A DNA stretch of 64,000 bases from an uncultured Candidatus Rokubacteria bacterium (GCA_963762145.1 CAVXJS010000014.1:480001-544000); one strand, 5' to 3'; positions 6,970 to 59,226 are shown, numbered from the stretch's first letter. Translations and numbers: made by a program. Notes: a model not told the origin generated them from the sequence alone.

Positions 6970-7821
6970 TTAGATCTCCGAGTAACCGCTGCCGCGGGTG
7001 TCCACGCCCCGGCCGCGGCCCGCGTCGATCCAGCCGAACTCGCGGAGGATCTGCTGGCTGTAGGTCACGCGGCCGCTCACGCGCTCGACCGGCTCGGTGG
7101 CCAGCAGCAGCGCGGCCTGCGCCATCAGGAGGGGCGGCTCGCCCCGTGGGTCGTCGAGGCCGCTCACGAGGCGGTGGTACACGGTGCCGGGGGTGGGCAC
7201 GACCTGGGAGGGCGACACCGCGGTCACCGAGATGCGGTGCGGGAACACCTCCGACGCCAGGCCCTGGGTGAAGCGCTCGAGCGCGGCCTTCTCGGCGCCG
7301 TAGCAGGTGCCGCCGCGCGCGCCCACCGCGGGATCGGAATAGGGCCCGCGCCCGGGGCCGATCGCGGAGCCGGAGGAGATGTTGACGATGGCGCCGCTCC
7401 GACGGGTGATCATGTCGCCGAGCACGAGCTGGCTCAGCATGAACGGGGCCTGAAAGTTCACGGCCCACGAGCGCAGCCACTTGCCGACCGGGTAGTCCTT
7501 CACCGGGATGTAGTAGGTCAGCGCCGCGTTGTTGACCAGCACGTCCACCGGGCCGTAGTGCCGCCGGGCCGCCTCGATCAGCCGCTCGCACTCCGCGGGC
7601 TCCGCGATGTTCGCGGCGATCGCGTGCGCGTCGCCGCCCGCCTCGCGGATGCCGGCCACGGTGGTCTCGAGCGAGCCGGCGAGGGGGTGCTGGCCTTCCT
7701 GAAGGGTGCGGGCCGCGCAGACCACGCGGCCGCCCTCGGTTGCGAAGAGCCGGGCGATGTCGGCGCCGATGCCGCGACTCGCCCCGGTGACTACCACGAC
7801 CTTGCCGTCCAGTCGGCCCAT
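6970..7821 (-). CDS. SDR oxidoreductase
   Basis: TGASRGIG, VNNAA, YGAEK; start placed at MGRLDGKV. Confidence 0.88.
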   Translation of the reverse strand: MGRLDGKVVVVTGASRGIGADIARLFATEGGRVVCAARTLQEGQHPLAGSLETTVAGIREAGGDAHAIAANIAEPAECERLIEAARRHYGPVDVLVNNAALTYYIPVKDYPVGKWLRSWAVNFQAPFMLSQLVLGDMITRRSGAIVNISSGSAIGPGRGPYSDPAVGARGGTCYGAEKAALERFTQGLASEVFPHRISVTAVSPSQVVPTPGTVYHRLVSGLDDPRGEPPLLMAQAALLLATEPVERVSGRVTYSQQILREFGWIDAGRGRGVDTRGSGYSEI

Positions 7822-49941: not shown

Positions 49942-50463
49942 CTAGGAGGCGTAGTGGTCGCGGGCGAGCGGGGGCTTCACGTCCTCGCCGGTGAAGAGCA
50001 CGGTGAGGACGACCTCCACCGAGTGGTTGATGGCGAGCCCCTGGCAGCCGATGGCCGCGCGGGTCGGCTTGCCGCGGTCGCCGTAGAGCTCGACCAGCAG
50101 GTCGGTGGCGCCGTTGATCACGCGCGGCTGCTGGGCGAAGCCGGGCGCGGAGTTCACGAAGCCGATGAGCTGCACCGCCTGCTGCACGCGGTCGAGATCG
50201 CCGAGCGCGTACTTGACCGCGGACAGGCTCGTGATCGCGGCGTAGCGCGCGGCCTCGTAGCCCTGCTCGATCGAGAGGTCCGCGCCGACGATCCCGGGCA
50301 GGTACGGCCGGCCGTCCTTCACCGGCGTGGTGCCGGAGAGGTAGAGCATGTTGCCGACCGCCAGGTGCGAGATGAACCGCGCCCCGGAGGCGTTGCCGCG
50401 GTAGTGCTGATCGAGATCGGGCAGGGTCAGGCCGAGCTGGGCGAGCTTCGCCTCGACGAGCAT
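49942..50463 (-). CDS. RidA/YjgF family protein
   Basis: LYLSG, GFVNSAPGF, INGATDLL, RAAIG. Confidence 0.88.
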   Translation of the reverse strand: MLVEAKLAQLGLTLPDLDQHYRGNASGARFISHLAVGNMLYLSGTTPVKDGRPYLPGIVGADLSIEQGYEAARYAAITSLSAVKYALGDLDRVQQAVQLIGFVNSAPGFAQQPRVINGATDLLVELYGDRGKPTRAAIGCQGLAINHSVEVVLTVLFTGEDVKPPLARDHYAS

Positions 50464-50478
50464 GGCGGCCGGGTCCGG

Positions 50479-51288
50479 TCAGCGGCCCTGGAACTGCGGC
50501 CGGCGCTTCTCCGAGAAGGCCTTCACGCCCTCCTGGTAGTCCTGGCTGTTGAAGCAGTCGGTGATCAGCCGGTCCAGCATGGCCAGGTCGCGGTCGGCCG
50601 ACGGCTTCAGGAGCTGCTCCACCGTGGCCTTGGCCGAGCGCAGGGTGAGCGGGGCGTTGCGCGCCATGGTCAGCGCGTAGTCCCGGGTGAAGCGCTCGAG
50701 GTCCGCCTTCGGCACTACCTGGTTCACCAGCCCCATGCGCAGCGCGTCCTGGGCGCTGAAGTCGGTGCGCGCGGTGAAGAACAGCTCCTTCGTGTACGCG
50801 GGGCCGATCAGGTGCATCAGCTTTTCCATACCCTTGTAGTGATAGCCAAGGCCCAGGCGCGCGGCCGGGATGCCGAAGCGGGCGTCGTCGGCCGCGATGC
50901 GCATGTCGCACGTGATCGCGATGCCGACCCCGCCGCCGATGCAGAAGCCGTGGATCATGGCGAGCAGGGGCTTGCCGAGCGTGGCCAGCGACTCCGATCC
51001 GGCCGCCGAGATGCGCCGGTACTCCTCCTCGTCGGCCGCGTTGCGGCGGCGGTCCTTGAACTGGGAGATGTCGGCCCCGGCGACGAAGGCGGTCTCGCCC
51101 GCCCCGCGCAGGATCACCACCCGGATCGCGGGGTCCCCGGAAAGGTCGCGCACGTACTCGGGCATGCGCTGCCACATCTCCTGGCTCACCGCGTTGCGCT
51201 TGTGCGGCTGATTGAAGGTGATCCAGCCGATCGGCCCGTCCTTCTCCATCAGCAGCGTCTCGGCCTGGCTCGTCACGGTCTCGCTCAT
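50479..51288 (-). CDS. Enoyl-CoA hydratase family
   Basis: AFVAGADISQF, CIGGG, EGVKAFSEKR. Confidence 0.9.
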   Translation of the reverse strand: MSETVTSQAETLLMEKDGPIGWITFNQPHKRNAVSQEMWQRMPEYVRDLSGDPAIRVVILRGAGETAFVAGADISQFKDRRRNAADEEEYRRISAAGSESLATLGKPLLAMIHGFCIGGGVGIAITCDMRIAADDARFGIPAARLGLGYHYKGMEKLMHLIGPAYTKELFFTARTDFSAQDALRMGLVNQVVPKADLERFTRDYALTMARNAPLTLRSAKATVEQLLKPSADRDLAMLDRLITDCFNSQDYQEGVKAFSEKRRPQFQGR

Positions 51289-51385
51289 GGGCGGTCTCTC
51301 CTGGTCTCGGGGTGCCGTTCGCCCACTGGTGTATCCCGTCCGCCGGCTTCGCGCAAGTGCGGTATCCTCGGCCGCACCCCGGACC

Positions 51386-53011
51386 ATGAGCCGCCCGAGC
51401 CATCGCGACGCGTGCCAGGCCTTCCGCTGGGAGGAGAGCGCCCGCGCCATGGGCCTCCCGCCGGGCGCGCCGGTGAATCTCGGCCGGGCGATCGTGGACC
51501 GCCACGCCGCCTCCGGCCGCGTCGCGCTGCGGTGGTTCGGCAAGGGCGGAGAGGCGCGGACCTACACGTTCGACGAGCTCGCGCGGCTGACCGCCCGGTT
51601 CGCGAACGCGCTGCGGGAGCTGGGCGTCGGCCCCGGCGACCGGGTCGCGGGCTTCATGCCGCGCATTCCCGAGATGCTGATCGCCATGATCGGGACGTGG
51701 AAGGTGGGCGCGGTCTACGTGCCGATCTTCACCGGCTTCGGGCCCGACGCGGTCGAGTTCCGGGTGCGCCACAGCGGGGCACGGGTGCTGGTCACGCAGT
51801 GGGAGCAGCGTGGGCGGCTCCCCGCGCCCCTGCCGGACGGGGTCACGGTCGTCACGGTGGCCGGCGGCGCAGCCGGCACCGGAGGCGACGTGGACTTCTG
51901 GCGCGTGATGGACGGGCCGCCCGACGTGGCCCGATCGGTCGACGTCCGTGGAGACGATCCCGCGGTGCTGCTCTACACCTCGGGCTCGACCGGGCCGCCC
52001 AAGGGCGTGAAGATCGCGGCGAACTTCCTCGTGGCGATCCATCCCCACCTCGTCCACGGAGCGGATCTGCTGAGCGACGACGTCTTCTGGCCGACCGGCG
52101 ATCCCGGCTGGGGCTACGGGCTGGTCTGCTACATGGGCGCGCTCGCCCTGGGGGTGCCGGTGCTCTCGCACGAGGCCGCGCCGACGCCCGAGTTCTGCGT
52201 CGCGCGGGTGCGCGAGCTGGGCGTGACCAACCTCGCGACGACGCCGACGCTGCTGCGCGGGGTGATGGCCCTCGGCGCGGTCGCGGCGGGCGGCGGGACG
52301 CTGCGGGTGCGCAGCGCGAGCAGCTGCGGCGAGCCCCTCAACGCGGAGGTGGTCCGCTTCTTCCGGGAGCACTGGGGTGTCACCGTCCGCGACCAGTACG
52401 GCTCGAGCGAGTTCGGCCTGCCGATCGGCAACTTCGCCACCATCGAGATGGCGGTCAAGCCGGGCTCGATGGGGCTGCCGCTGCCGGGCTGCGAGATCGC
52501 GGTGGTCGACGACGCCGGCCGCGAGGTGGGCCCGGACGTGGTCGGCCACGTCGGGATGAAGCCGCACCCGGCGGGCTACTACTCCCTCGGCTACTGGGGC
52601 GACGAGGACCGGGACCGCGCGATGTACCGCGGCGAGTGGATGACCTGCGGGGATCTGGCGCGGCGCGACGGGGAGGGCTACTTCTGGTTCGAGGGCCGCG
52701 CCGACGACGTGATCAAGAGCGCGGGCTACCGCATCGGCCCCTTCGAGGTCGAGAGCGCGATCCTCAAGCACCCGGCGGTGGCCGAGGCCGCGGTGGTGGG
52801 CAAGCCCGACGCGCTGCGGGGCCACATCGTGAAGGCCTACGTCGTCCTCAAGCCGGGCCGCGCGGCGCAGACCGGGCTCGAGGCCGAGATCGTGGACGTG
52901 GTGAAGACGCAGCTGGGCCGGCACCAGTACCCCCGGGAGATCGAGTTCCTCGATCAGCTCCCGAAGACCGAGACCGGCAAGATCCAGCGGTTCCTGCTGC
53001 GGGGGCGATGA
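51386..53011 (+). CDS. Acyl-CoA synthetase (acetate/medium-chain type)
   Basis: YTSGSTGPPKG, GRADDVIKSAGYRIGPFEVE, PKTETGKIQR. Confidence 0.92.
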   Translation: MSRPSHRDACQAFRWEESARAMGLPPGAPVNLGRAIVDRHAASGRVALRWFGKGGEARTYTFDELARLTARFANALRELGVGPGDRVAGFMPRIPEMLIAMIGTWKVGAVYVPIFTGFGPDAVEFRVRHSGARVLVTQWEQRGRLPAPLPDGVTVVTVAGGAAGTGGDVDFWRVMDGPPDVARSVDVRGDDPAVLLYTSGSTGPPKGVKIAANFLVAIHPHLVHGADLLSDDVFWPTGDPGWGYGLVCYMGALALGVPVLSHEAAPTPEFCVARVRELGVTNLATTPTLLRGVMALGAVAAGGGTLRVRSASSCGEPLNAEVVRFFREHWGVTVRDQYGSSEFGLPIGNFATIEMAVKPGSMGLPLPGCEIAVVDDAGREVGPDVVGHVGMKPHPAGYYSLGYWGDEDRDRAMYRGEWMTCGDLARRDGEGYFWFEGRADDVIKSAGYRIGPFEVESAILKHPAVAEAAVVGKPDALRGHIVKAYVVLKPGRAAQTGLEAEIVDVVKTQLGRHQYPREIEFLDQLPKTETGKIQRFLLRGR

Positions 53012-53067
53012 CTACTCATGAGGGTGGGCCCGCGCCCGAGCCCAAGCCCAACTCCGAGGAGAATGCG

Positions 53068-53481
53068 ATGCCAGCCTACGAGGTGATCACCGGGCCGAGC
53101 CCCTGGCCGGCCCGCTACACGTTCTCGCCCGCGGTCCGCGCGGGCAACCTGCTCTTCATCTCGGGCATGACCGCGGGGGACGAGAGCGGCAAGATCGTCG
53201 GGCCCGGCGACATCGCGGCCCAGACGCGCTACATCTTCGAGAAGTTCGCCAGGCTCCTGGCCGCGACAGGCGGCGGCTTCGAGCACATCGTGCAGACCAC
53301 CGAGTACGTCACCACCACCGAGAACTACGGCAAGACCGCCGATGTCCGCCGCGAGTTCTTCAAGGGCCGCTTCCCGACCGCGACCGGCGTCATCGTGGCC
53401 GGCCTCCTGCGCGAGGGCGCGCTCATCGAGATCTCGGCCATCGCCGTCCTGCCCGATCCCAAGGGAGAACCTCATGCCTGA
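53068..53481 (+). CDS. RidA family protein
   Basis: FSPAVRAGNLLFISG, FPTATGV, IEISAIA; RBS GAGGAG. Confidence 0.9.
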   Translation: MPAYEVITGPSPWPARYTFSPAVRAGNLLFISGMTAGDESGKIVGPGDIAAQTRYIFEKFARLLAATGGGFEHIVQTTEYVTTTENYGKTADVRREFFKGRFPTATGVIVAGLLREGALIEISAIAVLPDPKGEPHA

Positions 53482-54196
53482 TACGCGCCTGATCGACCAG
53501 GCCTTCCAGCGCATCATGCGGAGCCTCGTGGACACCGGCCGGGCGCCCCACCACGCGGAGCTGGCGCGCGCCCTCGGCCTGGCCGCCGAGGAGGGCCGGA
53601 GCCTGCTGCGCGACGTCATGCAGGCGTACCCGATCGGCTGGCTCCATCCCGAGACCGACTACATCGCCTCGTTCCCGCCGCTCAACAACCTGCCCACCCA
53701 GTACCGGATCACGGTGCGCGGTGAGCAGCGCTGGTTCGCGCAGTGCGGGTTCGAGGCCACCTCCGCGACGTGGCTGTTCCCCGGCGAGACCGTCCGGGTG
53801 GACGCGCCGTGCCTCGACTGCGGCGATCCGGTCACGGTGGAGATGCGCGGCGGGCGCATCACCTGGGTGGATCCGCCCGAGGTCGTCGGCCATCTCGCCT
53901 TCGGGTTCGGCCCGTCGCGCGGCCGACCGTACTACCTCTGAACCGGCATGAACCTCTTCCGGTCGGAAGAGCACGCGCGCCGCTGGAGCCAGTTCGAGCC
54001 GCGGTCCGAGCAAGGCTTCATCAGCCTGGCCGAGCTGGCCGGGTTCTTCGGCACCGAGAGCCGCCGGCACATGCTGGACGGCGACTATCTCTCGTCGTGG
54101 TATCCCCGCCGCGCCGCCGAGCGGCGCGCGTACCTCGAGCGGATCGGCAAGACCTCGCCGTTCTGGATGGGAACGCCGGACCCGCCGGCGTCCTGA
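53474..54196 (+). CDS. MerB-like (organomercurial lyase family) selenoprotein, Sec at codon 156
   Basis: ORFs 53342..53941 and 53948..54196 are in frame across TGA 53939-53941. WFAQCGFE resembles MerB CxxD; YYL-U-TGMNLFRSEEHARRW resembles the MerB second-Cys region; SECIS follows. Confidence 0.85.
53954..53971 (+). promoter_or_regulatory. Bacterial SECIS element
   Basis: CTCTTCC-GGTC-GGAAGAG, a perfect 7-bp stem with a GGUC loop, starting 12 nt after the UGA. Confidence 0.8.
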
Positions 54197-54230
54197 TGAG
54201 GTAGACTCTGGGGCCGAAAGGAGCCCATCC

Positions 54231-55193
54231 ATGAAAGCGATCCGCGTCTCCGAGTACGGTGGTCCGGCGGTCCTGAAGCTCGAGGAGATTCCCGCGCCCC
54301 AGCCGGGACCCAACCAGGTGCTGGTGCGCAACCACGCCGTCGGCATCAATCCGGTGGACACCTACCTGCGGAGCAACACGGACAACCGCGGACCCAAGCT
54401 GCCCTACACCCCGGGCAGCGACGCGGCGGGCGTCGTCGACGCGGTGGGCTCGGGCGTGACCGCGGTGAAGAAGGGCGACCGCGTCTACGTGGGCGGGACG
54501 GCCACCGGCGCGTACGCCGAGTACGCGGTGTGCGAGCAGACCCAGGTGCACCCGCTCGCCGCCAACGCCACCTTCGCGCAGGGCGCGGCCGTGAACGTGC
54601 CCTACGCGACCGCATACCACGCGCTCTTCAACCGCGCCCACGGCGAGGCGGGCGAGACGGTGCTGGTGCACGGCGCGAGCGGCGGCGTCGGGATCGGCGC
54701 GGTGCAGCTCGCGCGGGCGCGCGGCCTCACCGTCATCGGGACCGCGAGCACCGAGAAGGGGCGGCGCCTGGTCGCCGAGCAGGGCGCGCACCACGTGCTC
54801 GACCACAGCGCGCCGGGCTATCTCGAGGAGTGCGCCAAGCTGACCGGCGGGCGCGGTCCCGACATCATCATGGAGATGCTGGCGAACGTGAATCTCCAGA
54901 AGGATCTGGGCGCCATCGCGCTGCGGGGGCGCATCGTGGTCATCGGCAATCGCGGCAACACCGAGATCAACGCGCGCATCGCCATGAACAAGGACGCGGC
55001 GATCCTCGGCATGGCCCTCAACCACGCCACCCCGGCCCAGCTCGCGGGCATCCACGCCGCGCTCGTGGAGGGGCTCCGCAACGGCTCGCTCCGCCCGGTC
55101 ATCGCCCAGGAGCTGCCGCTCGCGCAGGCCGCGCGCAGCCACGAGGTGGTGATGGAAGCCGGCCACCACGGCAAGGTCGTCCTCGTCCCCTGA
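54231..55193 (+). CDS. NADPH:quinone reductase (zeta-crystallin-like)
   Basis: PYTPGSDAAG, HGASGGVG; RBS AAGGAG. Confidence 0.92.
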   Translation: MKAIRVSEYGGPAVLKLEEIPAPQPGPNQVLVRNHAVGINPVDTYLRSNTDNRGPKLPYTPGSDAAGVVDAVGSGVTAVKKGDRVYVGGTATGAYAEYAVCEQTQVHPLAANATFAQGAAVNVPYATAYHALFNRAHGEAGETVLVHGASGGVGIGAVQLARARGLTVIGTASTEKGRRLVAEQGAHHVLDHSAPGYLEECAKLTGGRGPDIIMEMLANVNLQKDLGAIALRGRIVVIGNRGNTEINARIAMNKDAAILGMALNHATPAQLAGIHAALVEGLRNGSLRPVIAQELPLAQAARSHEVVMEAGHHGKVVLVP

Positions 55194-55194
55194 T

Positions 55195-55340
55195 GGGGTC
55201 AGGTCTTACATTCCGACATTTCTGCGCGCGGCGACTCGGTCGGGTCCCGTAACGGGGTCAGGTCTTGAATTACGACATTTCCTCGCGTGCGGCCTTCTGG
55301 CGCCGCGCGGCGGAAATGTCGTAATTCAAGACCTGACCCC
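55195..55340. repeat. REP cluster, three units
   Basis: Direct units at 55195 and 55254, inverted unit at 55315-55340. Confidence 0.92.
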
Positions 55341-56105
55341 TCAGAACGAGGCGGTGACGGGGCCGAGGGGGGTGAAGGTGGCCGCGATGCGGTCGCCGCG
55401 GGCGATGGGGTACTGGCGGGTGAACGAGCCCGACATCACCTTCATGCCGGCTTCGAGCGCCAGGCCGAGCTCGGCGAGCTTGTTGGCGAGCCACGCGATG
55501 GAAGCCGCGGGCGTGCCCAGCACCTCGGCGCCGGTGGCCCGGTCGGGGGCGCCCCCGTTCACGGACAGCTCCAGCGCCACCGTGGCGAGGTCGAAGCCCG
55601 CGGGCACGGGCACCGCCGCGCCGGTCACGTAGGCGCGCTGCTGGGCGTTGTCGGCCAGGCTCACGTTCAGGTCGGCCGCGAAGTCGCCGCGCTTCTCGAT
55701 GATCTCGAAGGCCGGCGCCATCGCGCTCAGCGCGGCCTGCGCCTGGTCGTCGGTGACGCCGGGCCCGCGCAGGGTGCGGCCCACCGTGAGGCAGAGCTCG
55801 TTCTCGAAGCCGGGATTGATCAGGTCCGCGAACTGAAAGCGCGTGCCGCTCGGCCGCTCGCCGCTGGCGAGCAGGAAGCCCAGTACCGGCTCGTGCACCT
55901 TCTGCTGGATCTGCATCGCCTTCGAGGTGAGGCCGACCTTCCAGCCGGCCTGCCGCTCGCCCGCGGCCACGTGGCGCGCGAGCACGCCGAGCTGCACCCG
56001 ATAGGCCTCCTCGCGGCTCAGCCGGCTCGTCCACTCGGCAGGCGGCGCGGTCCGGCAGCGGGCCGCGGTCCAGAACGCGGCGATGGCTTGCGCGGTGGTG
56101 CTCAC
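55341..56105 (-). CDS. 2-keto-4-pentenoate hydratase (MhpD)/FAH family
   Basis: GWKVGLTS, FENEL, ADNA, MSGSFT; GTGA overlap with the upstream gene. Confidence 0.88.
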   Translation of the reverse strand: MSTTAQAIAAFWTAARCRTAPPAEWTSRLSREEAYRVQLGVLARHVAAGERQAGWKVGLTSKAMQIQQKVHEPVLGFLLASGERPSGTRFQFADLINPGFENELCLTVGRTLRGPGVTDDQAQAALSAMAPAFEIIEKRGDFAADLNVSLADNAQQRAYVTGAAVPVPAGFDLATVALELSVNGGAPDRATGAEVLGTPAASIAWLANKLAELGLALEAGMKVMSGSFTRQYPIARGDRIAATFTPLGPVTASF

Positions 56106-58477
56106 GGCTCTCCCCGGCGGACCTGGCACACGTAGGACCGCAGCGCGACCGTCCCGCTGATCGGATCGGCGGAGTCGGGATCGATCAGGTTGTTGTAGTT
56201 GGCGCTGGCCGCGCCCTCCGCCGGGTAGCCCCCGAGCTGGAGGGGCTCGCACGGCTGCCACCAGCCGAACTGCGCGCAGACCACGTCGGGCGCGAGGCTC
56301 GGATTGAGGCGCGCCCGCGCCCGCATGGTGGCGCGCGGCGTCTCGATCAGCACCCAGTCGTCGCCCGCGATGCCGCGGGCCAGGGCCGCGTCCGGATGCA
56401 GCTCGACCTGCGGGTCGGGGCTGTGCCGCCGCAGGCGCGCCAGGCTCCGGTGCTGGCTGTGGCAGAACTGCACGACCTTGGCGGTGGTGAGCTGCAGCGG
56501 GAACCGGGCGGCGAGGTCGGGGCGGCTGACCGGGCTCGCGGCGGGCTCGACGAACTCGGGCAGCGGCGCCTGGCCGCACTGCTGGAGCTGCGCGGAGAAG
56601 ATCTCCACGCGGCGGCTCGGCGTGGCGAAGCCGACCGGGCCGTTGGCGCCGCGGGCCGCGTAGCGCTTGAAGCGCGGCTCGACGGTGGTGCGCACGCCGC
56701 CTGGGTTGTCGCGGAGCTGCTCGAGAGTGACACCGGTCGGCTCGAGCATGAAGCGGTGGCCCGCGTCCTCGTCGCCCTCCCAGAAGCGCTCGCCCAGGCC
56801 CAGGCGGCGGGCCAGCTCGCAGACGATCCAGATGTCCGAGCGCGCCTCGCCCCTCGGCTCCACCACCGCAGGCCGGAGCTGCACGTGCTGCTCGCCGTCC
56901 TGCGTGGGCCCGAAGCCCACCCGCAGCCCCTCGCGCTCCCACGCGGTGGACACCGGCAGCACCACGTCGGCGAGCGCGGCGGTGGGCGTCAGGAAGAGAT
57001 CGGCGTAGACGAGGAAGTCGAGGCTCGTGAGCGCGGCGCGCGCGGTGGCCGCGCCCGGCGCGGAGAGCAGCAGGTTGGTGCCGAAGCCGACCATCCCGCG
57101 CACCGGGTAGGGCGCGCCGTGGAGCATCGCGCGATAGGTGTCGGCCGAGACGGGCCACCCCTGGCGGGCGGGCCCGAGGGGCCGCCCGGCCAGGCCGAGC
57201 GCCTTCGCGCGCTGCCGCTCCGGAAGCAGCGCGAGCGGGGCCAGGTCGTTGACCGCCGGGCGGCTCGGCCGCACGTTGCCGCCGGGCGCGTCGAAGCACC
57301 CGGTGAGCGCGTAGAGGAGCGAGAGCGCGCGCACGGTCTGGCTCGCGTTGGTGTGCTGCTCGAGCCCCGTCCAGTGGAAGTAGGAGACCGGGCGCCGCTC
57401 CCACAGCAGGCGCGCGGTCTCGACGATCTGGGCCGCCGGGACGCCGGTGATCTGCTCCACGCGCTCGGGCGAGTACTCGCGGCAGAGCGCGGCGTAGGTC
57501 TCGAATGCGGGCACGCACGTGACGGGGCCGGAGCGCGTCATGCACCGCACGGTCCCGTCGAGCTGCGGGTCGCCGATCGGCTCGATGTAGTCGGCGGTGG
57601 CCGGATCGTACGCCACCGGGCGAAGAGCGGCGCGATCCCACGCAACATAGTGTCCGGGGCTGCCCACCGCGGAGAGATCGGCCGCGCTGAGGAGGCGGCC
57701 GTTGTCGGCGCGCACCAGGAACGCTCCGTTCGACCAGTCGCGGATGAAGTCGCGGTCGTACCAGCCCTCCGCGATCATGACCGCGGCCAGCCCCAGCGCG
57801 AGCGCGCCGTCGGTCCCGGGGCGCACGCGCAGCCACTGATCCGCGCGGGCCGCCGCCCCCGCGTGGCGCGGGTCCACCACGATCAGCGCCGCCCCGCGCG
57901 CCGTCATCTCGGAGACGGCGGTGGCCTGGGCCAGATAGGTGGCCGACGGGTTGTGCCCCCAGAGCAGGAGACAGCCGGTGCGATCGAAGTCGGGGGTGCC
58001 GATGTCCACCCCGAACGTGAACGGGGTGACGAAGTCCCGGTGCCAGGCGCACAGCTCCTCGCCCCAGACCAGGTTCGGGCTGCCGAAGGCGCGAATCAGC
58101 CGGAGGATCCAGAGGAAGCCGTCGGAGACCGCGGTTCCCGCCGGGGTCGTGCAGCCGAAGGCCACGCCCTCCGGCCCGTGCCGCCGCGCGACCTCGCGCA
58201 TCTTCGCCGCGGTCCAATCGAGCGCGGCGTCCCAGCTGATGCGCTCCCAGCCCGCGTCCGGGTCCGACTTGGGCCGCGTGCGGCGCATCGGGTAGAGCAG
58301 CCGGTCCTCCGCGTAGACCAGCTCCGGGGCGGCGCGGCCCTTCACGCAGAGGCTGGCGCCGGTGGGGTGCGAGGGATCAGGCTCGACCGCGACGAGCCGC
58401 CCGTCCTCCACCACCGAGACGCAGCCGCACCGGGAGCGGCAGAGCGCGCAGAAGCCCTGGATCCGCCGGGTGGCCAT
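56102..58477 (-). CDS. Molybdopterin oxidoreductase (Cys-ligand, acetylene-hydratase-like clade)
   Basis: CALCRSRC...LCVKG, GEELCAWH, FCHSQH; ATG overlaps the SDR stop (TGATG). Confidence 0.88.
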   Translation of the reverse strand: MATRRIQGFCALCRSRCGCVSVVEDGRLVAVEPDPSHPTGASLCVKGRAAPELVYAEDRLLYPMRRTRPKSDPDAGWERISWDAALDWTAAKMREVARRHGPEGVAFGCTTPAGTAVSDGFLWILRLIRAFGSPNLVWGEELCAWHRDFVTPFTFGVDIGTPDFDRTGCLLLWGHNPSATYLAQATAVSEMTARGAALIVVDPRHAGAAARADQWLRVRPGTDGALALGLAAVMIAEGWYDRDFIRDWSNGAFLVRADNGRLLSAADLSAVGSPGHYVAWDRAALRPVAYDPATADYIEPIGDPQLDGTVRCMTRSGPVTCVPAFETYAALCREYSPERVEQITGVPAAQIVETARLLWERRPVSYFHWTGLEQHTNASQTVRALSLLYALTGCFDAPGGNVRPSRPAVNDLAPLALLPERQRAKALGLAGRPLGPARQGWPVSADTYRAMLHGAPYPVRGMVGFGTNLLLSAPGAATARAALTSLDFLVYADLFLTPTAALADVVLPVSTAWEREGLRVGFGPTQDGEQHVQLRPAVVEPRGEARSDIWIVCELARRLGLGERFWEGDEDAGHRFMLEPTGVTLEQLRDNPGGVRTTVEPRFKRYAARGANGPVGFATPSRRVEIFSAQLQQCGQAPLPEFVEPAASPVSRPDLAARFPLQLTTAKVVQFCHSQHRSLARLRRHSPDPQVELHPDAALARGIAGDDWVLIETPRATMRARARLNPSLAPDVVCAQFGWWQPCEPLQLGGYPAEGAASANYNNLIDPDSADPISGTVALRSYVCQVRRGEP

Positions 58478-59226
58478 CAGACGGCGAGAAAGCCCCCGTC
58501 CACCACCAGCTCGGTCCCGGAGATGTACGAGGCCTCGTCGGAGGCCAGAAACAGGACCGCGTGGGCCACCTCCTCGATCCGGCCCTCGCGCCTCAGGGGG
58601 ACGGCGTCGAGCAGCGGCTTCCGCCAGACCGGGTCGGCCGAGCCCTTGGAGGTCCGCATCGGGGGAAGAAAGCCCGGGTGCACCGAGTTCACCCGGATGC
58701 CGTCCTTCCCGTACTGCACCGCGCCCGACTTGGTCATGATGCGCACCGCGCCCTTGGAGGCGTTGTAGCCCATGTGGATCTTGTCCTGCCCCACGAACCC
58801 GGAGATCGACGAGATGTTCACGATGGACCCGCCGCCGCTCTTCCGCATGACCGGGACCGCGTGCTTCATGCCGAGGAAGACGCCCTTGGCGTTGATGTTC
58901 ATCAGGCGGTCCCACGCGGCGGTGCTCTCGTAGTCGGGATCGTGCGTGCCGCTGATCCCCGCGTTGTTGACGAGGATGTCGAGCCGCCCGTACGCGGCCA
59001 CGGTGGCCTTGATCGCGGCTTCCCAGTCCGCCTCGCTCGCGACGTCGAGTTTCACGAACTGCGCGCGGCCGCCCGCGCCGGTGATGTTCGCCGCGACCTT
59101 CTGCCCGTCGGCGTCCACGTCCGCGACGATGACGCTCGCGCCCTCGCGCGCGAAGATCACCGCCTCGCTCTCGCCCATTCCATGCGCGGCGCCGGTGACG
59201 ATGGCCACTTTGTCCTTGAGTCTCAT
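58477..59226 (-). CDS. SDR oxidoreductase
   Basis: TGAAHGMG, NNAGI, YNASK; RBS AAGGAGGAG. Confidence 0.92.
   Translation of the reverse strand: MRLKDKVAIVTGAAHGMGESEAVIFAREGASVIVADVDADGQKVAANITGAGGRAQFVKLDVASEADWEAAIKATVAAYGRLDILVNNAGISGTHDPDYESTAAWDRLMNINAKGVFLGMKHAVPVMRKSGGGSIVNISSISGFVGQDKIHMGYNASKGAVRIMTKSGAVQYGKDGIRVNSVHPGFLPPMRTSKGSADPVWRKPLLDAVPLRREGRIEEVAHAVLFLASDEASYISGTELVVDGGFLAV

Follow-up and report, generated by a model that had tools for sequence, protein, structure and literature searches.

A 64,000-nucleotide (nt) stretch of DNA from an uncultured Candidatus Rokubacteria bacterium (GCA_963762145.1 CAVXJS010000014.1:480001-544000; hereafter the window) carries, at 53474-54196 on its + strand, two open reading frames (ORFs) that lie in the same frame and are parted by a single TGA codon. 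The question raised by this locus is whether the TGA ends a protein or is read as selenocysteine (Sec) and, if it is read, what kind of protein is made. An earlier note on the same DNA had proposed a Sec-containing enzyme of the MerB fold, 240 residues long. From sequence comparison we find it highly probable that UGA-156 is a Sec codon and that a single gene at 53474-54196 encodes a selenoprotein of 240 residues. Taken as a whole, the locus is best explained as a Sec-recoded MerB-fold gene, a reading that we hold with good confidence; its possible chemistry as a lyase is graded separately below.

The in-frame UGA codon and its hairpin

The features of the gene on which the argument depends are the following.

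53474..54196, + strand: complete predicted selenoprotein gene, 240 codons (ATG at 53474 to 54193) and a terminal TGA at 54194-54196
53461..53467, + strand: Shine-Dalgarno-like AAGGGAG, 6 nt 5' of the ATG at 53474, read from the sequence, function presumed
53744..53755, + strand: codons for C91-G-F-E94, which match Cys96-x-x-Asp99 in a HMMER alignment to MerB chains
53939..53941, + strand: UGA codon 156, the predicted Sec codon, from TGA in relatives, Cys in uninterrupted homologues and the MerB alignment
53954..53971, + strand: hairpin of the selenocysteine insertion sequence (SECIS) type, stem 53954-53960 and 53965-53971, loop GGUC 53961-53964, from the sequence and RNAfold

From the ATG at 53474 the frame runs through 155 sense codons to the TGA at codon 156, and then through 84 sense codons to the terminal TGA. 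The surroundings of codon 156 read ...CTC TGA ACC GGC ATG AAC... and the frame is uninterrupted past the TGA, which bears out the junction CTC TGA ACC GGC ATG described in the earlier note. The initiating ATG overlaps the end of an upstream RidA gene by 8 nt (ATGCCTGA). By eye, no Shine-Dalgarno sequence or purine-rich stretch was visible 5' of the internal ATG at 53948, AAGGGAG being present only before 53474, as had been claimed of the downstream ATG. The translation contains the motifs WFAQCGFE (C91, E94), CLDC (C113, C116) and YYL-U-TGMNLFRSEEHARRW. A promoter and terminator scan of 50400-55600 gave no match. TGA serves twice in this gene, as the predicted Sec codon and as the real stop at 54194-54196, and the same holds for 59 of 79 relatives.

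The DNA of relatives was obtained by scanning one genome per species, and the best 80 of 133 confirmed relatives were taken as the comparison loci. Their proteins range from 94% down to 45% identity to the window protein, and their metagenome-assembled genomes (MAGs) carry the labels Rokubacteria/Methylomirabilota, Acidimicrobiia, Dehalococcoidia, Nitrospinae, Tectomicrobia and Deltaproteobacteria, as deposited, some of them doubtful. The codon aligned with position 156 was TGA in 79 of these 80 loci, the remaining one breaking off at a contig end. As terminal stops these genes have TGA in 59 cases, TAG in 14 and TAA in 6 (n=79); codon 156 was never TAA or TAG. Since the terminal stops drift but codon 156 never does, codon 156 behaves unlike a real stop. 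Of 201 genomes sampled from the phylum, 60 gave a match, among them 12 of 13 other genomes of the genus to which the window genome belongs; full-length matches contain the internal TGA. One of the matching genomes in this sample, G029, is unpublished; none of the claims depends on it.

Among 1.84 billion representative proteins a search found 531 relatives, of which seven uninterrupted ones were aligned (P0127, P0137, P0144, P0219, P0222, P0260 and P0266). All seven have Cys at column 156. Homologues with Cys or a conserved TGA at this codon are what the earlier note had proposed to look for, and nothing else was seen at this column. Such an interchange of Cys and putative Sec is the pattern expected of a selenoprotein. 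A 217-residue entry with Cys at the site, P0002, was left uncounted: it comes from a read-level protein assembly and has an internal deletion, so that a Cys variant and an artefact are not distinguished. The 241-residue entry P0005 was discarded as a frame-shifted translation.

The ratio of non-synonymous to synonymous substitution (dN/dS; Nei-Gojobori, against 13 relatives) was 0.10-0.46 before the TGA. After it, over codons 168-238, the ratio was 0.06-0.56 in 12 of the 13 comparisons and 0.89 in the most distant relative. Judged by these ratios, the stretch after the TGA is under purifying selection. In addition, a soil-metagenome contig of another study (X8 record 21) spans the TGA and the hairpin with zero differences; soil contigs of other studies have the same TGA, and no other letter was seen there among the difference rows and bridging records listed. 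This comparison used contigs only, which give no reading of RNA ends, strand or expression level, and uncovered parts are uninformative. Over 53929-53965 the summed depth of soil contigs (three runs) rises to 52-58, against about 5-10 nearby, a roughly five-fold peak, probably made up of contigs from many strains that are identical only there.

Bacterial SECIS elements are stem-loops shortly 3' of the UGA, with a G in the apical loop. The hairpin CTCTTCC-GGTC-GGAAGAG, which had been reported 12 nt after the TGA, was confirmed at 53954-53971: it has a perfect 7-bp stem and a 4-nt loop, starts 12 nt 3' of the TGA, and is present in both the minimum-free-energy and the centroid structure of RNAfold. 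It falls within codons 161-166 (L F R S E E). Codon variation was counted in 75 complete genes, namely the window gene and 74 loci; L063, L066, L070, L071 and L074 (incomplete or frameshifted) and L077 (at a contig end) were left out. Codons 161-165 are CTC TTC CGG TCG GAA, and none of the 75 genes differs there by a synonymous change; the codon of Ser164 is TCG in 71 of 71, and the Glu codon in the hairpin is GAA throughout, despite DNA of about 70% G+C. Mean codon entropy of conserved degenerate codons was 0.22 bits over codons 159-167, against 0.96 bits over 80 columns elsewhere, and loop variants were limited to GGUC, GGGC and GGGG. By this codon evidence the hairpin is under selection as RNA.

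Several results weigh against this reading of the UGA and its hairpin. The fold of the 71-nt segment gave a z of -0.96, with 36 of 200 shuffles folding as well. Perfect stems of 7 bp with a 4-nt loop are uncommon (16 in 64 kb); a perfect 7-bp hairpin lies 8-20 nt downstream of 15 of the 641 + strand TGAs in the window. As the stem is invariant among the 75 genes there are no compensatory changes, and covariation cannot be counted. An Rfam scan of 53800-54100 (E <= 10) returned only chance-level matches to unrelated families, and no curated bacterial SECIS family in Rfam applies to the hairpin. Parts of the gene are covered by contigs of metatranscriptome libraries, but these may stem from carried-over DNA and the RNA support is weak. 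The hairpin alone is therefore not beyond chance; it is lifted above chance by comparison, 79 of 80 loci having the TGA and 75 of 75 genes showing no synonymous change in the hairpin codons. The hairpin that had been called a textbook SECIS has the position and the GGUC loop described; folding energy alone does not single it out.

The other + strand TGAs followed by such a hairpin are at 7700, 12778, 13595, 14090, 18892, 21669, 22618, 29168, 33725, 36906, 43330, 55834, 63218 and 63561, with 15 more on the - strand; these are probably mostly chance or terminators.

All four parts of the Sec machinery, whose presence the earlier note had named as a check, were found in the genome of the window, which is 88% complete. 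The matches to selA (500 bits), selB (74.6 bits), tRNA-Sec (selC; 69.3 bits against a cut-off of 47) and selD all exceed curated cut-offs. The genes selB, selA and tRNA-Sec are clustered within about 5 kb on contig C9 (G000:C9:751780-756726; L001, L002, L010), and two selD genes lie outside the window, at G000:C11:419505-420437 (L011) and G000:C14:136744-137655 (L012). The better-scoring of the two has an in-frame TGA and is probably itself a selenoprotein. In the mechanism that we propose, UGA-156 would be read as Sec because a hairpin forms in the mRNA 12 nt downstream, which would recruit SelB carrying Sec-tRNA(Sec) supplied by the genome's own selA, selB, selC and selD.

Active site, sister clade and proposed function

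The protein matches the Pfam MerB family (PF03243) with 58.5 bits, against a gathering threshold of 27, over residues 73-187, a span that crosses the TGA; the first 155 residues alone score 36.6 bits. It is the sole PF03243 gene in the genome. An AlphaFold2 model built from a 23-sequence alignment has a mean predicted local distance difference test score (pLDDT) of 92.8 and a predicted template modelling (TM) score of 0.88, and is unbroken through residue 156. In a Foldseek search with this model, all 11 PDB matches at E <= 0.001 were MerB or MerB2 (best 1e-11, TM 0.56-0.68). In the predicted structure, the read-through product is a single MerB-fold domain, in line with the fold first suggested for it. 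The N-terminal helix-turn-helix-like region of that suggestion retains a weak Foldseek likeness (E about 1); the region is part of the MerB alignment itself.

In MerB, Cys96 is the metal-binding cysteine and Asp99 the proton donor, with C91 and E94 as the presumed equivalents here. In HMMER alignments to solved MerB chains, C91 aligns with Cys96, E94 with Asp99, and U156 with the catalytic Cys159. WFAQCGFE thus supplies C-x2-E, and the UGA falls at the second catalytic cysteine, as had been proposed. C113 aligns with the structural Cys117 of MerB, so of the CLDC motif that had been called extra only C116 is an addition. The 23-sequence alignment shows C91 and position 156 as invariant, with E94 retained in at least 90% of its members.

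In the search of representative proteins, many relatives stop at residue 90. In DNA, a sister clade of metagenome loci (L098-L177, e.g. L098:594 onward) has two in-frame TGAs. One replaces the codon of Cys91 (KWFGQ-U-GFES) in 79 of 80 loci, the 80th also having a stop there and being cut two codons later; the other, at the Sec site of the window gene, is present in all 65 loci that extend that far. A further hairpin, GCUGGCA-GUU-UGCUGGC, is a candidate second SECIS and starts 12 nt after the first UGA. These loci would thus encode Sec at both metal-binding positions. A FastTree tree was rooted on distant Cys homologues (Shimodaira-Hasegawa-like supports, rooting assumed). In this tree the Cys forms P0137 and P0144 diverge below the clade with Sec-156, which includes the two-Sec group. 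The Cys-156 protein P0127 falls inside the one-Sec clade and the one-Sec gene L075 inside the two-Sec clade, which tentatively suggests occasional reversions from Sec to Cys. A further variant is seen in L085, L087-L090 and L092-L096 (MAGs labelled Acidimicrobiia, Acidimicrobiales, Microthrixaceae or 'Poriferisodalis'), in which 193-217 residues follow the Sec codon (about 84 do so in the window gene) and which therefore have an additional C-terminal region.

The gene is flanked directly by two others.

53068..53481, + strand: RidA/L-PSP family gene (Pfam PF01042, 72.2 bits)
54231..55193, + strand: zinc-type alcohol dehydrogenase / quinone oxidoreductase family gene (Pfam ADH_zinc_N and ADH_N)

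The order on the + strand is a gene for an AMP-binding enzyme (51212-53011), the RidA gene, the selenoprotein gene and the dehydrogenase/quinone oxidoreductase gene, which begins 35 nt after the selenoprotein stop. The RidA gene is probably co-transcribed with the selenoprotein gene. The position between a RidA and a quinone reductase, to which the earlier note drew attention, is thus real in the window; as only the closest relatives (L017-L032, L064) share the arrangement, it carries little information on function. Two genes downstream, at 56102-58915 on the - strand, lies a molybdopterin oxidoreductase gene (Fe4S4, molybdopterin and dinucleotide-binding domains), and a member of the same family is also found beside the distant locus L078. 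A few gene families (FAA hydrolase, molybdopterin oxidoreductase, cupin, M20 peptidase and enoyl-CoA hydratase) turn up near the gene in two lineage groups apiece; they were rejected as partners, the recurrence being too weak.

If the protein works as MerB does, an organometallic compound would be bound through its metal or metalloid by the thiolate of Cys91 and the selenolate of Sec156, and Glu94 would protonate the leaving carbon, so that the carbon-metal bond is cleaved. That the window protein cleaves a carbon-metal(loid) bond by such protonolysis is a serious possibility by analogy with MerB, which we put forward tentatively.

A number of points tell against this function. The aligned proton donor is Glu94 and not Asp. 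A selenolate should grip Hg(II) tighter than a thiolate, and this could hinder turnover. When ORFs of at least 100 residues around 75 loci were clustered, only lineage-specific synteny was seen, with no neighbour shared across deeper lineages, and no shared or mer-type partner emerged when 109 flanking ORFs of 15 diverse loci were searched with Pfam. Neither merA, merR, merT nor merP is present among the neighbours in the window, in agreement with the absence of merA, merR and merT noted before; in the genome, 88% complete as stated, the best match to MerA reaches 392.5 bits, below the cut-off of 454.45. With no conserved neighbour and no mer-type gene, the protein seems to work on its own. 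Since no MerA exceeds its cut-off, no mer or SAO genes (see below) are neighbours and the neighbourhood varies, the substrate need not be mercury; and since the gene stands alone, product release must manage without a dedicated MerA partner. Going further, the family may be a stand-alone, selenium-dependent carbon-metal(loid) lyase of abundant soil bacteria, acting either on trace methylmercury at very low concentrations and independently of MerA, or on an organometal(loid) that contains no mercury; in the two-Sec sister clade the catalytic site would be a bis-selenolate. This extended proposal we regard as possible but doubtful.

The same protein could also be a MerB-fold selenoprotein that is not a lyase, in which Cys91 and Sec156 form a redox pair (a selenenylsulfide) in a thiol/selenol oxidoreductase, or a high-affinity site for metal binding or delivery. 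The missing mer partners and conserved neighbours fit this alternative, and a diselenide or a very tight metal site would go well with the double Sec of the sister clade. In the abstract of PMC9312934, most bacterial selenoproteins are said to work in redox reactions, and the preprint by Haft & Gwadz (bioRxiv 10.1101/2022.07.06.499078) reports that a single residue change makes MerB copper-binding. Two features sit poorly with this alternative: at least 90% of the 23 sequences retain E94, which a simple redox pair would not need, and the entire MerB core is retained, including the region of the substrate pocket. We consider this, the main alternative, rather unlikely, though worth keeping in view beside the tentative assignment as a carbon-metal(loid) lyase.

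Public records and the reading of the UGA as a stop

Public homologues are 155 residues long in 103 of the best 120 listed of 637 found. In the closest public cluster the named members are called 'organomercurial lyase', 'alkylmercury lyase' or 'hypothetical protein', and nearly all have 155 residues. Entries of about 80 residues that start from residue 159 exist too, so that gene callers in fact give both of the pieces expected if the TGA were a true stop. In that case the gene would be split, translation would reinitiate at the nearby ATG, and products of 155 and 82 residues would assemble; ATG-159 is indeed invariant (75 of 75) and lies 6 nt after the TGA. Several points speak against a split gene. 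TAA and TAG never occur at codon 156 in 79 loci, though the terminal stops vary; the codon aligns exactly with a catalytic cysteine; Met159 is kept in 4 of 7 uninterrupted homologues; and ATG-159 is not preceded by a Shine-Dalgarno sequence. The lack of synonymous change in the hairpin codons fits an RNA element placed where a SECIS would be, and splitting would take one of the two metal ligands out of the active site. We therefore judge a split gene very improbable. Annotation pipelines stop at the TGA, and one might on that account take it for a pseudogene mutation or for an error of sequencing or assembly in the window genome; this is ruled out for practical purposes, since independent assemblies share the TGA (79 of 80 loci, the matches in genomes of the phylum and soil contigs of other studies) and the stretch after it is under purifying selection; the base-call error that the earlier note had named as a risk is thereby set aside.

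With UGA-156 as the predicted Sec codon, the locus represents what is, on the evidence of its relatives, a real, widespread and unannotated family of MerB-fold selenoproteins. Since many public records end at the Sec codon, surveys of mercury-resistance genes and of selenoproteomes that use those records would misread the family. With the records corrected, Methylomirabilota gains a widespread family of selenoproteins; one MAG of the phylum, from a groundwater set, is reported in the accessible part of a review (PMC13188914) to have 63 predicted selenoprotein genes.

Comparison with known SECIS, MerB and SaoL

The SECIS of E. coli fdhF starts about 11-12 nt after the UGA and has the apical loop GGUC. 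The hairpin described here resembles it in start distance after the UGA and in a loop that begins with G and contains GU. It differs in that its stem sequence is unrelated and no bulged U is evident in the perfect 7-bp stem.

With MerB (PF03243; PDB 3F0O, 3F0P and 1S6L; MerB2 5C17) the window protein has the fold and the Pfam family in common, and the three active-site positions are likewise Cys, an acidic residue and Cys/Sec, with Cys117 kept as C113. In contrast to MerB it has Sec for Cys159 and Glu for Asp99, an additional Cys116 and about 35 extra C-terminal residues, and the identity is about 21-23%. The chemistry to be expected of Cys91, Glu94 and Sec156 is close to that of the MerB residues but not the same. 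The curated MerB models NF033555 and PRK13239 are missed by a wide gap (27.9 bits against 200 and 30.7 against 193), so by sequence the protein does not appear to be a canonical MerB.

What was already known is that Sec can occupy a MerB-like site. The accessible part of the preprint by Haft & Gwadz (bioRxiv 10.1101/2022.07.06.499078) describes SaoL as a MerB-like 'selenocysteine-assisted organometallic lyase' which has a Cys-Sec dipeptide and marks a nine-gene SAO locus of strictly anaerobic bacteria. Reviews name only one MerB-like selenoprotein, and a later one (PMC13188914) equates it with SaoL, in so far as their accessible parts go. In the literature searched, available in part, no description of the present subfamily was found and SaoL was the only MerB-like selenoprotein named, in keeping with the suggestion that the subfamily is uncharacterised; supplementary tables lay outside the search, so that an earlier listing there is possible. 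The subfamily, its hosts, its stand-alone context and its two-Sec sister form thus appear to be undescribed in that literature. The family would be a second, independent subfamily beside SaoL in which Sec takes the place of a metal-binding Cys of the MerB site, with both Cys replaced in the sister clade. The natural Cys, one-Sec and two-Sec versions make the benefit of selenium to an organometallic lyase testable. A MerB-like enzyme independent of MerA could bear on the turnover of methylmercury or of other organometals; the sequencing runs that contain the sequence are labelled soil.

The window protein is not itself SaoL, from which the earlier note had also kept it apart. The SaoL model NF040728 gives 32.8 bits against a cut-off of 140, over residues 57-136 only. 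The Sec motif is L-U-T and not CU, the residue before Sec being L, R, A, S, M or I and never Cys in the translations examined. No SAO locus accompanies the gene: the best match to SaoP in the genome reaches 127.6 bits, against a cut-off of 295, and lies away from the window gene, and SaoB gave no match in the genome, a weak result since control genomes gave none either.

The two subfamilies nevertheless have much in common. According to the accessible part of the preprint, SaoL too has a MerB-family fold, with Sec aligned to Cys159 and paired with equivalents of Cys96 and Asp99; its database entries too end at the UGA, with about 50-85 residues missing; and its substrate too is suspected not to be mercury alone. 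The family described here differs in having Glu for Asp, a longer C-terminal extension and no conserved locus. In place of the strict anaerobes of SaoL, its hosts are mainly labelled as Rokubacteria/Methylomirabilota MAGs, and the runs that carry it come under the label soil.

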